This document shows, one piece after another, positions 37,745 to 41,400 of a stretch of 64,000 nt of DNA; position 1 is the stretch's first letter, and the number at the start of each line of letters is the position of its first letter. Origin of the DNA: an uncultured Trueperaceae bacterium (GTDB lineage Bacteria; Deinococcota; Deinococci; Deinococcales; Trueperaceae); NCBI GenBank assembly GCA_963727505.1, contig CAVSGP010000009.1:608001-672000 (forward strand), read 5' to 3'. Below the pieces are notes generated by a model. It had not been told where the DNA came from, did no database searches, and saw only the letters and a program-made list of their open reading frames with translations. The translations under genes and the position numbers were made by a program.

Positions 37745-39817
37745 ATGACTACCCAGACGAAGATTGACCTGCACAAGACCCGCAATATCGGCATCGCCGC
37801 CCACATCGACGCGGGCAAGACGACGCTGACGGAGCGGATCCTGTTCTATGCGGGGCGCATCCACAAGATGGGGGAGACCCACGAGGGCGCCTCCCAGATG
37901 GACTGGATGGAGCAGGAGCGCGAGCGTGGCATCACGATCACTTCGGCCGTGACGCAGTGCTTCTGGCTCGACACCCGCATCAATATCATCGACACTCCAG
38001 GGCACGTCGACTTCACCATGGAGGTCGAGCGCAGCATGCGCGTGCTCGACGGCGCCGTGGCGGTGTTCGACGCCAGCCAGGGCGTGGAGCCGCAGAGCGA
38101 GACGGTGTGGCGTCAGGCCGACAAGTACCGCGTGCCGCGCCTCGCCTTCGCCAACAAGATGGACAAGACCGGGGCGGACTTCCAGCTCGTGCTCGACAGC
38201 ATGGAGGAGCGCCTCGCGGCGAACGCCGTGGCGATCCAGTGGCCGATGGGGGCCGAGGACAAGTTCGCCGGCATCCTCGACCTGGTGGACATGAAGGCGG
38301 TCATCTACGGTGACGATCTGGGCAAGGACATCCAGTTCGTGGACATCCCCGCCGAGTGGCAGGACACCGCCGAGGAGAAGCGCAACCTCATGATCGAGCG
38401 CCTGGCGGACGTCGACGACGATGTAGCGCTGCTGTTCCTGGAGGGCGAGGAGATCCCGACCGAGACGATCAAGTCCGCCATCCGGCAGGCGACCATCGCC
38501 CAGAAGATCTTCCCGGTCCTGTGCGGCTCGGCCCTCAAGAACAAGGGCGTGCAGCGTGTCCTCGACGCCGTTGCCTGGTATCTGCCCAGCCCGCTCGACG
38601 TGCCGCCCGTGCGCGGCGTGATCCCCGACACCGGTGAGGAGCAGACGCGCCCGGCCGAGGAGGACGCGCCTACCGCGGCGCTGGCGTACAAGGTCATGAC
38701 CGACCCCTACGTGGGCCGGCTGGTGTTCGTGCGGGTCTACTCGGGTGCGTTCGTCTCCGGCTCCTACATCTACAACGTGTCCAAGGGCAAGCGCGAGCGC
38801 ATCGGACGCCTGCTGAAGATGCACGCCAACTCCCGCGAGGAGGTGGAGCGCATCGGCGCCGGCGACGTGGGCGCCGTGATCGGGCTCAAGGACACCAGCA
38901 CCGGCGACACGCTCGCCGACCCGGATCACCCCATCGAGCTCGAGTCGATCGAGATCCCCGAGCCGGTCATCACGGTAGCCATCGAGCCGGCGTCGAAGGC
39001 CGACCAGGACAAGCTGTCCAACGGTCTTGTGAAGCTGGCCGAGGAGGACCCGACCTTCCGCGTGGAGACCGATGCCGAGACCGGGCAGACCAAGATCTCG
39101 GGCATGGGTGAGCTCCACCTGGAGATCATCGTGGACCGGCTCAAGCGCGAGTTCAACGTCAATGCCCACGTCGGCGCGCCGCAGGTGGCGTACCGCGAGA
39201 CCATCACGCGGAAGGTCGACGTCGAGGGCAAGTTCGTGCGCCAGACGGGCGGTCGCGGTCAGTACGGCCATGTCAAGCTGCAGGCCGAGCCGCGCGCCCG
39301 GGGCGAGGGCTTCGAGTTCGAGAACGGCATCGTCGGCGGCGTCATCCCCCGTGAGTACATCCCGGCCGTGCAGAAGGGCGTCGAGGAGGCCATGCAGAAC
39401 GGGCCGCTACTCGGTTTCCCCATCGTCGACATGAAGGTGAAGCTCTACGACGGGTCGTACCACGAGGTGGACTCGTCGGAGATGGCCTTCAAGATCGCCG
39501 CCTCGATGGGGTTGCGCGAGATCATGAAGCAGGGTGGGGCCGCAGTGCTCGAGCCGGTCATGCGGGTCGAGGTGGTCACTCCTGACCAGTACATGGGTGA
39601 CGTCATCGGGAACCTGAACTCGCGTCGCGGCCAGATCCAGGGCATGGAGCCCCGCGGCAACGCCCAGGTCGTCACCGCCCACGTGCCGCTTGCCGAGATG
39701 TTCGGCTACGCGACCGACCTCCGTAGCCTGTCGCAGGGCCGGGCCGTCTTCACGATGATGCTCGATCACTACGACCAGGTCCCGCGCAGCATTCAAGAAG
39801 AGCTCGTCAAGAGCTGA
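37745..39817 (+). CDS. fusA: elongation factor G
   Basis: [29 protein letters not shown]. Confidence 0.98.
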
Positions 39818-39857
39818 GAATCGTCCGACCTCGTTTCGGAGTCGAAGGAGAACAACG

Positions 39858-41077
39858 ATGGCTAAGGGTGTGTTTGAGCGTACGAAGCCGCATGTGAATG
39901 TGGGGACGATTGGGCATGTGGATCATGGGAAGACGACGTTGACGGCTGCGATTACGTTTGCGGCTGCGGCGGCGGATCCGAGTGTGGAGATTCAGGATTA
40001 CGATCAGATTGATAAGGCGCCGGAGGAGAAGGCGCGGGGGATTACGATTAATACGGCGCATGTGGAGTATCAGACGGTTGCGCGGCATTATTCGCATGTG
40101 GATTGTCCGGGGCATGCGGATTATGTGAAGAACATGATTACGGGTGCTGCGCAGATGGATGGTGCGGTGTTGGTGGTGTCGGCTGCGGATGGGCCGATGC
40201 CGCAGACGCGTGAGCATATTTTGTTGGCGCGTCAGGTGGGGGTGCCGTCGATTGTGGTGTTTTTGAACAAGGTGGATATGGTGGATGATGAGGAGTTGTT
40301 GGAGTTGGTGGAGATGGAGGTGCGGGAGCTTTTGTCTTCGTATGAGTTTCCGGGGGATGAGATTCCGGTGGTGTCGGGGTCTGCGTTGAGGGCGTTGGAG
40401 GCGTTGCATGGGAATCCGAATATGCAGCGTGGTGAGGATGGGTGGGTGGATAAGATTTGGGAGTTGTTGGATGCGGTGGATTCGTATGTTCCGACGCCGG
40501 TTCGGGATACGGAGAAGCCGTTTTTGATGCCGGTGGAGGATGTGTTTACGATTACGGGTCGTGGGACGGTGGCTACGGGTCGTATTGAGCGTGGTGGGGT
40601 GAAGACGGGGGATGAGGTTGAGATTGTTGGGTCTGGGGGATACGCGGAAGACGGTGGTGACTGGGTGTGGAGATGCATCGGAAGACGTTGTCGTCGGGGA
40701 TGGCTGGGGATAATGTGGGGGTTTTGTTGCGGGGTGTGGGGCGTGAGGAGATTGAGCGGGGTCAGGTGTTGGCGAAGCCTGGTTCGATTACGCCGCATAC
40801 GGTGTTTCGGGGGTCGGTGTATGTGTTGAAGAAGGAGGAGGGGGGGCGGCATTCGGCGTTTTTTTCTGGGTATCGGCCGCAGTTTTACTTTCGGACGACG
40901 GATGTGACGGGGGTGGTGTCGTTGCCGGAGGGTGTGGAGATGGTGATGCCTGGGGATAATGTGGAGCTTGCGGTGGAGTTGATTAAGCCGATTGCGATGG
41001 AGGAGGGGTTGCGGTTTGCGATTCGTGAGGGGGGTCGGACGGTCGGTGCGGGTGTCGTGACGGCCGTGACGAAGTAA
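39858..41077 (+). CDS. tuf: elongation factor Tu, with two apparent +1 G insertions (40629-40631, 40663-40665)
   Basis: [31 protein letters not shown]; 1220 nt = 405 codons + stop + 2 extra bases. Confidence 0.96.
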
Positions 41078-41079
41078 CC

Positions 41080-41400
41080 ATGGCAGCCCCCAAGATCCGA
41101 ATCAAGCTCAAGGCGTTCGATCACCGAAGCCTGGACAGTTCCGCCACCAAGATCGTAGAGACGGTCCGGCGCACGGGCGCCAAGGTCGCCGGCCCGGTGC
41201 CGCTCCCGACCCGCATCCGGCGGTTCTGCGTGCTGCGTTCGCCGTTCGTCGACAAGGACAGCCGGGAACACTTCGAGATCCGTACCCACAACCGGCTGAT
41301 CGACATCAAGTCGCCGACGAAGAGCACCATCGATTCCCTCATGCACCTCGATCTGCCGACCGGGGTGGACATCGAGATCAAGACCGTCGGAGGACGATGA
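41080..41400 (+). CDS. rpsJ: 30S ribosomal protein S10
   Basis: [16 protein letters not shown]. Confidence 0.98.

Follow-up and report, generated by a model that had tools for sequence, protein, structure and literature searches.

The tuf gene of the GC-rich soil bacterium studied here (genome G000) is almost devoid of cytosine and adenine at its silent sites, while the genes on either side of it in the same operon use C-ending codons freely, a pattern that looks like the outcome of selection and not of DNA damage. The window analysed, positions 608001–672000 of contig C9 (64,000 nt), contains the str operon genes fusA, tuf and rpsJ, whose features are as follows (window coordinates; C3 is the C content of third codon positions, with A3, G3 and T3 likewise):

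37745–39817, forward strand: fusA, unskewed upstream neighbour in the same operon, C3 50.7%
39818–39857, forward strand: fusA–tuf intergenic region and 5' UTR, unpurged, 10 C in 40 nt
39858–41077, forward strand: tufA (EF-Tu), true length 1218 nt (405 amino acids), deposited with two extra bases
39858–41041, forward strand: C- and A-purged tract of tufA, codons 1–394, with four C-ending and no A-ending codons
40633, forward strand: spurious extra base, first frameshift of tufA, a consensus error absent in relatives
40662, forward strand: spurious extra base, second frameshift of tufA, a consensus error absent in tufB and in relatives
41042–41077, forward strand: last 11 codons and stop codon of tufA, normal C usage (GTC, GTC, GCC)
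41080–41400, forward strand: rpsJ, unskewed downstream neighbour, C3 49.5%

Composition of tuf and its neighbours

Residues 1–257 of the tufA product match positions 1–246 of the EF-Tu profile (TIGR00485/NF009372, 457 bits) and the 136-amino acid C-terminal piece matches positions 259–393 (240 bits); with the two extra bases removed these lie in one frame of 405 amino acids, identifying the protein as EF-Tu. The Thermus/Deinococcus-type insert quoted in the preliminary description of this DNA is present in the translation. That description ended tuf at 41045, which we correct to 41077.

The skew is bounded by the gene, as had been proposed: in 200-nt windows GC skew is 0.34–0.59 across 39800–41099 and approximately zero in fusA and rpsJ. 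Third positions are nearly all G or T (codons 1–257: A 0, C 1.2%, G 64.6%, T 34.2%), fusA and rpsJ are rich in C-ending codons at the C3 values listed above, and the stretch 40261–40320 contains exactly one C. Genome-wide, only 30 of 3,260,300 windows of 60 nt have one C or none, and 30/30 lie inside the two copies of tuf. The onset of the change is the ATG. Just seven C-ending codons are found in the gene (codons 48, 92, 137, 343, 395, 399 and 402), three of them among the last 11, so that the return of normal C usage in the last few codons also holds. On either side, the last 100 codons of fusA and the first 100 of rpsJ have a C3 of 50–51%, and the 5' UTRs of tufA and of the second copy, tufB, contain 25% (10/40) and 28% (22/78) C, respectively.

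Codons ending in T make up 95% of two-fold pyrimidine codons in tuf compared to 10% in the genome, four-fold degenerate sites are 78% G, 21% T, 1.4% C and 0% A compared to a genome average of 40%, 7%, 48% and 5%, and TTG accounts for 92% of leucine codons compared to 7%. Third-position GC skew is +0.92 in tuf, compared to an average of -0.11 (sd 0.12) for 1991 ORFs; these form a crudely called set that covers 74% of the genome and misses the N-terminal piece of tuf and the gene sqdB discussed below. Lists of outliers drawn from this ORF set include several spurious frames. On a score of codon-usage likeness, the distance from the genome mean is approximately 10 sd for tuf and approximately 6 sd for recA, and the gap contains no real genes.

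Integrity of the locus

The deposited tufA reading frame is split by the extra bases at 40633 and 40662. Both bases are missing in one contig from each of three DNA sequencing runs belonging to three studies (X1, X3, X9), relatives carry intact tuf genes of 1218 nt, and removal of the two bases restores an intact 405-amino acid EF-Tu; the frameshifts thus have no biological basis and are errors of the consensus in G-rich sequence.

An abrupt change of composition relative to its flanks is also what would be expected if tuf were foreign, either joined to another organism's DNA in assembly or acquired by horizontal transfer. However, contigs from other studies cross both junctions. The tuf–rpsJ junction is bridged by contigs of runs X1, X3, X9 and X15, and under a 31-letter rule the fusA–tuf junction is bridged by one contig, from the RNA library X15 and with 11 differences; three DNA contigs reach 26–30 letters into tuf and then end, as contigs should where a two-copy repeat begins. 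The relative G003 also has fusA, tuf, rpsJ and rplC in a single locus with the same composition, and EF-Tu protein identity tracks kinship. The chimeric join to a foreign tuf that the preliminary description had named as a refuting outcome was not seen. A foreign or chimeric tuf is thus refuted as far as contigs can show, and we consider this origin so improbable as to deserve practically no weight. Contigs of the X15 metatranscriptome contain parts of tuf at 90–95% likeness and are uninformative on expression here. Comparison of EF-Tu and RecA with viral contigs gave no close copy, the best matches being 81% over 174 amino acids for tuf and 64% for RecA.

Inheritance of the pattern

EF-Tu is 98, 96 and 95% identical to its counterparts in genomes of the same genus and 91–82% identical beyond it, following kinship as expected of vertical inheritance and in agreement with the earlier view that an AT-rich donor is unlikely. 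In all four genomes of the genus from which 233 or more tuf codons were recovered, tuf has a C3 of 1.2–3.9% and an A3 of 0; five further genomes of the genus, in which tuf lies at contig breaks, are outside this count. The three terminal C-ending codons are common to G003 and G004. In other genera the purge is graded, with a C3 of 2% in G015 (94 codons only), 13% in G014 and 17–23% in G024, G025 and G021, where G3 is about 63–65%, and in two genera (g12 and g11) usage is the opposite, with a C3 of 61–70%. A milder preference for G-ending codons, which had been mentioned for Thermus tuf, was not borne out in g12, a genus that we take to be Thermus-like and in which C3 is 70% and G3 26%.

As a wider background we scanned genome contigs with EF-Tu and took an arbitrary set of 80 bacteria among the matches listed. 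Among those of their tuf genes whose GC3 is above 0.6, the one from a Trueperaceae MAG has the largest third-position skew (0.66), followed by a value of 0.34; the lowest C3 in the set is 5.2%, in an AT-rich gene, and in 4 of the 80 genes G3 is about double C3 or more. The EF-Tu of this MAG is 89% identical to that studied here, which makes Trueperaceae the probable family of the bacterium.

Two recA genes and a mirror image

Across the whole genome, absolute GC skew exceeds 0.45 (300-nt windows) at only a handful of loci, which include both copies of tuf, two copies of recA and one gene resembling SQD1. The last three lie outside the window and are given in contig coordinates:

C2:79570–80658, reverse strand: recA copy with C-purged core
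C9:351351–352388, reverse strand: recA copy with C-purged core
C9:387231–388442, reverse strand: SQD1-like gene (sqdB), single-copy, G- and T-purged, the mirror image of tuf and recA

Both recA copies match the RecA profile (TIGR02012) well above its cut-off (534.6 and 536.1 bits against 325.3) and have in common a core of 943 bp that is 100% identical. Codons ~21–300 are purged of C: four-fold sites are 89% G, 4% C and 6.8% T, TTG makes up 92% of leucine codons, and the large majority of the C-ending codons retained are TTC and ATC. Normal usage is found in the N-terminal ~20 codons, which have diverged between the copies, and in the last 50–60 codons.

The third gene matches positions 1–369 of the 384 in the UDP-sulfoquinovose synthase profile (NF041015) with 340.6 bits, below the equivalog cut-off of 575, and is for this reason named only as SQD1-like. 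Its four-fold sites are 94% C, 3.2% A and 2.6% G, it has no T-ending two-fold codons, and it uses GAA over GAG (18:6) and CAA over CAG (14:8), compared to 1:58 and 1:30 in fusA. The purge runs from about codon 13 to a few codons before the stop, and a glycosyltransferase gene 60 nt downstream in the same operon is unskewed. The patterns in recA and in the mirror gene are both conserved, and graded, within the genus.

A search for a common motif or complementarity between the tracts gave chance matches of 9–16 nt, plus a 15-nt match between tuf and recA at the P-loop. The enrichment of k-mers such as GGTGG is a consequence of composition.

Gene conversion and the edges of the tract

The anticipated second copy of tuf was found at C9:397945–399163, after a cluster of tRNA genes (Thr-Tyr-Gly-Thr) and before rpmG. 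The two copies are identical at 1215 of 1219 positions, from the ATG to the TA of the stop codon, and their flanks cannot be aligned; all four differences fall within a patch of ~30 nt that holds consensus errors, and tufB is frameshifted too. With different operon contexts and near-identity limited to the coding sequence, the pair has the marks of gene conversion. Concerted evolution of tufA and tufB by this means is the model established in Salmonella and E. coli, and the setting here is the same canonical one, with two copies identical from ATG to stop and unrelated flanks. Conversion makes the two copies alike and places the edge of tufA exactly at the ATG, and between tufA and tufB it would continue to keep the copies identical from ATG to stop and so sharpen the edges of the tract. 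It accounts for the identity, however, and not for the composition, and we know of no report of silent-site C loss in enterobacterial tuf genes.

It had also been suggested that the skew belongs to the conversion tract as such, and a biased repair of heteroduplex within the tract might produce it as a by-product in both tuf and recA. Each of these genes is present in two copies with tracts of 99.7–100% identity (1219 bp in tuf, 943 bp in recA); for tuf, skew and identity do coincide, both running from ATG to stop. Against this, six other repeat pairs in the genome (554–4819 bp, 91–100% identical) have absolute GC skews of at most 0.12. The mirror gene sqdB has its skew as a single copy, the identity tract of recA is ~30 codons longer than its skew, and among relatives the tuf copies of G024 and G025 are 100% identical yet only partially skewed. 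In G017 the copies differ at one base over the ORF and the purge covers only the last ~170 codons, a mismatch between tract and skew. A skew generated by conversion is therefore very unlikely in our view.

Mutation or selection at silent sites

The preliminary description offered two further origins for the skew, deamination of one exposed strand (C>T and A>G on the coding strand) and selection against C; it is the second that fits the data best, and the first is not supported. Compared to G003, tuf differs at 14 of 206 four-fold sites, against 61/177 in fusA, 17/59 in rpsJ and 19/117 in rplC. The recA core differs at 11/151 (flanking genes 71/204 and 74/200) and, compared to G007, sqdB at 12/172 (flanking gene 87/223), giving a four-fold divergence in the skewed genes about five times below that of their flanks. 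In the larger flanking genes, silent differences are most often between C and G (35, 46, 38 and 62 cases), and only 1, 1 and 6 such differences are found in tuf, the recA core and sqdB; in the smaller flanks C–G changes are 6 of 17 in rpsJ, and 5 in rplC compared to 6 between C and T. Between G000 and G007 the sqdB product has 50 amino-acid differences and the gene only 24 silent codon differences. From these comparisons we conclude that the silent sites of tuf, the recA core and sqdB are probably under purifying selection, while low silent-site divergence can also come from a mutational equilibrium that has become saturated.

Directional change is also seen where it alters the protein. At replacement sites tuf has 22 A>G against 6 G>A compared to G020 (with similar ratios compared to G027 and G012), recA has 32 against 8 in the A>G direction compared to G011, sqdB has 37 G>A against 6 in the reverse direction compared to G014, and the fusA control is even (14 against 15); all of these comparisons share the G000 lineage and are unpolarised and non-independent.

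Strand skews of several mutational kinds are known, among them the GC skew of leading strands, transcription-induced C>T change on the non-transcribed strand and the heavy/light strand bias of vertebrate mitochondria, whose third-position skew is comparable in magnitude to that described here. A strand-specific process of this kind would require that one strand be exposed as ssDNA (by transcription, R-loops, replication stalling or recombination), that its amino bases be deaminated and that conversion spread the result. Several features are as expected: the bases purged are the two amino bases of one strand, with A3 at 0 and C3 at 1.2% in tuf and the mirror image in sqdB; the replacement changes are directional, A>G in tuf and recA and G>A in sqdB; and the purged segment of tuf in G017 is rich in T (ACT 10, GGT 20, GTT 13), like fresh C>T change. 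Contig GC skew, which is positive throughout C9 and negative throughout C2, makes the G/T-rich strand the leading strand for tuf, sqdB and the recA copy on C2, a match that involves only two informative loci, and the recA copy on C9 lacks it.

The products of deamination should however accumulate at unconstrained sites across the transcribed region, and this is not what is found. At four-fold sites of tuf, C has been replaced by G and not by T, and the T content of four-fold sites in the recA core is 6.8% compared to 6.7% in the genome; in the mirror gene, four-fold A is 3.2% compared to 5.4%. By our estimate, a rough model built from the fluxes in flanking genes predicts approximately equal T and G at the four-fold sites of tuf. 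Nor are the G-to-C events seen that would be expected at the flanking rate; had they occurred at this rate and then been deaminated, we estimate that there would be many more G/T differences and far more T. The replacement sites of tuf have no excess of C>T (3 against 4). The co-transcribed 5' UTRs, with the C content given above, fusA, rpsJ and the glycosyltransferase gene after sqdB are all unskewed, and for routes through cDNA no match to a reverse transcriptase (PF00078) was found in the genome, which is 97% complete. Strand-asymmetric deamination as described in the portions of two reports considered here (PMC2031905, PMC10030826) shares with our case the loss of one strand's amino bases, but differs in that the tract here is bounded within single genes, UTRs and neighbours are spared and the four-fold sites are filled with G (or C). 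Overall, a mutational origin of this kind appears unlikely.

Codon adaptation and mRNA folding

Selection may act on silent sites through translation, in which case the codons of tuf would be those best matched to the tRNAs of the lineage. The bias is limited to coding sequence, and the choice for a given amino acid is all-or-none, in a pattern that varies from genus to genus (TTC 13:0, ATC 17:0 and GAT 22:3 in G014, the reverse in G024), as this would predict. A translational bias should, however, be present in weaker form in other highly expressed genes, and we did not find it there: T/(T+C) is 0.12 in 15 ribosomal-protein ORFs of the S10-spc-alpha region and 0.08 in fusA compared to 0.10 in the genome, four-fold G is 0.37 and 0.39, respectively, compared to 0.40, and on the tuf-likeness score the gap that separates recA from the bulk is empty of real genes. 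The tRNA complement also speaks against it, with 47 tRNA genes for 43 anticodons (four present twice, the rest once, and including anticodons that start with G, C and U) and the same tRNA reading the T- and C-ending codons of a two-fold box. The favoured codons include GGG and CGG, and the amino-acid sequence itself shifts. The similarity to codon bias of the type described by Sharp and Li is that it is strongest in tuf, confined to coding sequence and conserved; the differences are that it is absent from ribosomal-protein genes and fusA, that it favours GGG, CGG, TTG and T-ending two-fold codons and that a second gene has the opposite preference. We regard translational adaptation as highly improbable.

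A second possibility is selection for mRNA that folds weakly, which would explain the opposite skews of tuf and sqdB since purging either the minority G or the minority C removes G–C pairs. The folding energies predicted per nt are -0.353 (tuf), -0.364 (recA) and -0.258 (sqdB), compared to -0.491 ± 0.045 for 40 random genes, the weakest of which is at -0.376, and versions of tuf, recA and sqdB recoded to genome-average usage give -0.449, -0.483 and -0.375. Weak folding is nevertheless automatic from a GC skew of either sign. A-ending codons would cut structure further but are absent (A3 of 0), potential for G–U pairing is gained through the A>G replacements in tuf, and there is no skew at the 5' ends of recA and sqdB, the part in which structure most affects initiation. 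This explanation is in our opinion distinctly unlikely.

Two further candidates were rejected. Neither tuf, recA nor the antisense strand of sqdB contains a canonical G3+ G-quadruplex motif, and avoidance of a single nuclease site is not indicated, as the only 3- and 4-mers to stand out are C-rich words, and tuf has two occurrences of ACA.

Transcript C/G balance and a possible role of Rho

The variable that moves consistently, at silent and replacement sites alike, is the G/C balance of the sense strand, with G rising and C falling in tuf and recA and the reverse in sqdB. Known readouts of this balance are Rho loading, which requires C-rich, G-poor naked RNA, and the propensity to form R-loops or to fold. 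The mechanism we put forward is that purifying selection at synonymous sites excludes C (and A) from the sense strand of tuf and the recA core and G (and T) from that of the SQD1-like gene. C would then give way to G where the code allows, so that GC content stays high, and to T only where a pyrimidine is forced. The quantity selected would be the C/G balance of the transcript, most likely read out by Rho loading: tuf and recA transcripts would be Rho-proof also while the polymerase runs ahead of the ribosomes, for instance if EF-Tu is scarce or DNA is damaged, whereas antisense transcripts of these genes, and the sense transcript of the SQD1-like gene, would be ideal Rho substrates. We infer both the agent, Rho, and the physiological rationale from sequence, and hold selection on C/G balance with Rho as its likely readout to be a serious possibility that falls somewhat short of probable.

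The tuf stretch that satisfies the published definition of a C>G-free region is:

39770–41124, forward strand: C>G-free stretch (definition of Nadiras et al. 2018), 1355 nt, %C no higher than %G in every 78-nt window

Stretches of this kind measure 1363 nt at tufB and 1157 and 1019 nt at the two recA genes, and sqdB lies inside a C>G bubble of 1413 nt. Ranked by area among the 97 stretches of at least 600 nt in the genome, those of tufA, tufB, both recA copies and sqdB occupy places 2–6, with tufA third. In the portion of the study of E. coli and Salmonella considered here (PMC6144790), Rho failed to terminate transcription in vitro on 28 of 32 C>G-free templates and motifs rich in G weighed against termination, and tuf and recA are rich in G-motifs of the kind that counted in this way. 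Over 1.0–1.4 kb the two genes fit the sequence definition used in that portion of the work, but the regions it describes (PMC6144790) are ordinary fluctuations of composition in E. coli and Salmonella, whereas here a whole ORF is made extreme through its silent sites. A rho gene is present here and in 31/31 genomes searched; across relatives, the length of the stop-to-stop frame of rho has no pattern with respect to tuf skew.

Several observations sit less well with Rho as the agent. The ribosomal-protein genes and fusA are unskewed although the same risk from Rho is expected for them. The excess of T over A at four-fold sites of tuf (43 against 0) and the loss of A at its replacement sites both resemble an amino-to-keto bias of the deamination type, and C at tuf replacement sites is balanced, with 16 lost and 16 gained compared to G020. 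The recA purge skips the first ~20 codons and ends ~30 codons before the identity tract does, which an ORF-wide target does not explain. As to the mirror gene, we can offer no convincing reason for a sulfolipid gene to be Rho-sensitive, a weak point of this explanation.

The stronger proposition, that silent sites serve bacteria to tune each gene's sensitivity to Rho, with tuf and recA Rho-proofed and the SQD1-like gene Rho-baited, is doubtful at present. If it is true, Rho-proofing of tuf would break a circle in which scarce EF-Tu leads to uncoupling, uncoupling to premature termination and premature termination to less EF-Tu, and if Rho is the readout the skew would provide a sequence-level handle on the coupling of transcription and translation.

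Implications

Full-text literature searches found no published description of a C-purged tuf. The present work adds the purged recA cores, the mirror gene, a test of deamination at four-fold sites, the directional shift in amino acids and the recognition of the frameshifts as errors. In an essential gene, conservation is here greater at silent sites than in the amino-acid sequence, and the bias is strong enough to alter the protein sequence, implying a strong and gene-specific constraint on nucleic-acid composition that would lie outside standard codon-usage theory. Both tuf and recA are standard phylogenetic markers, and composition of this kind can mislead nucleotide trees, detectors of horizontal transfer and binning, and the G-runs of such genes yield consensus frameshifts in assemblies, as seen in tuf here.

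Frameshifts and divergent copies of tuf

As deposited, both tuf copies of the Trueperaceae genome (G000) contain a frameshift, caused in each by extra bases within G-rich sequence:

window 40633 and 40662, extra bases in tufA
G000:C9 about 398720, extra base or bases in tufB

The additional bases are missing from contigs of three other studies, and the frameshifts are therefore consensus errors.

Among related genomes, the two tuf copies of G017 (loci L012 and L278), which differ from each other by one base, are mosaic: codons 233–405 are purged of C and rich in T (ACT, GGT, GTT, CGT), while in codons 1–232 the purge is only partial. Three distinct tuf sequences lie in the single MAG G014 (contigs C89, C109 and C169). 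Compared with the query they are 91, 88 and 74% identical, and two of them are 85% identical to each other as DNA. Strain mixture or contamination could account for the presence of three sequences.

The recA pair and the SQD1-like gene

The two recA genes of G000 have a core of 943 bp that is 100% identical between them, and differ at their N- and C-termini:

G000:C2:79570-80658, minus strand, first recA copy with the common core
G000:C9:351351-352388, minus strand, second recA copy with the common core

To judge from the flanking sequence, one copy appears to adjoin an RNase Y-like gene and the other a PDH E1-beta-like gene. G003, G012 and G015 also have two recA matches each.

The UDP-sulfoquinovose-synthase-like (SQD1-like) gene of G000 has silent sites purged of G and T:

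G000:C9:387231-388442, minus strand, SQD1-like gene, about 10 kb upstream of tufB

The gap of ~10 kb between this gene and the start of a tuf gene recurs in G001, G003, G007 and G015, with both genes on one contig. In short-read MAGs the gene is often found at contig ends or alone on a contig, and in G006 it occupies its own contig of 1252 nt. The G003 gene is split, as the deposited tuf copies are, and gives two overlapping matches.

Other features of the genome

G000:C9:13721-16121, minus strand, largest C>G bubble of the genome (2401 nt, %C above %G by the 78-nt window rule)
G000:C4:1073779-1078597 and G000:C14:130680-135498, inverted match of 4819 bp, 100% identical, at two contig ends
G000:C4:261611-261826, minus strand, rho, inside an open frame of 674 codons

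The first of these spans a KaiC-like gene, extends into the beginning of a PAS/GGDEF/EAL gene, and lies in a cluster of genes rich in third-position C close to the contig start; the region may be an acquired island. The inverted match is probably an unresolved repeat or contig overlap. The length of the rho frame, measured from stop to stop and not from a start codon, may point to a long N-terminal extension.
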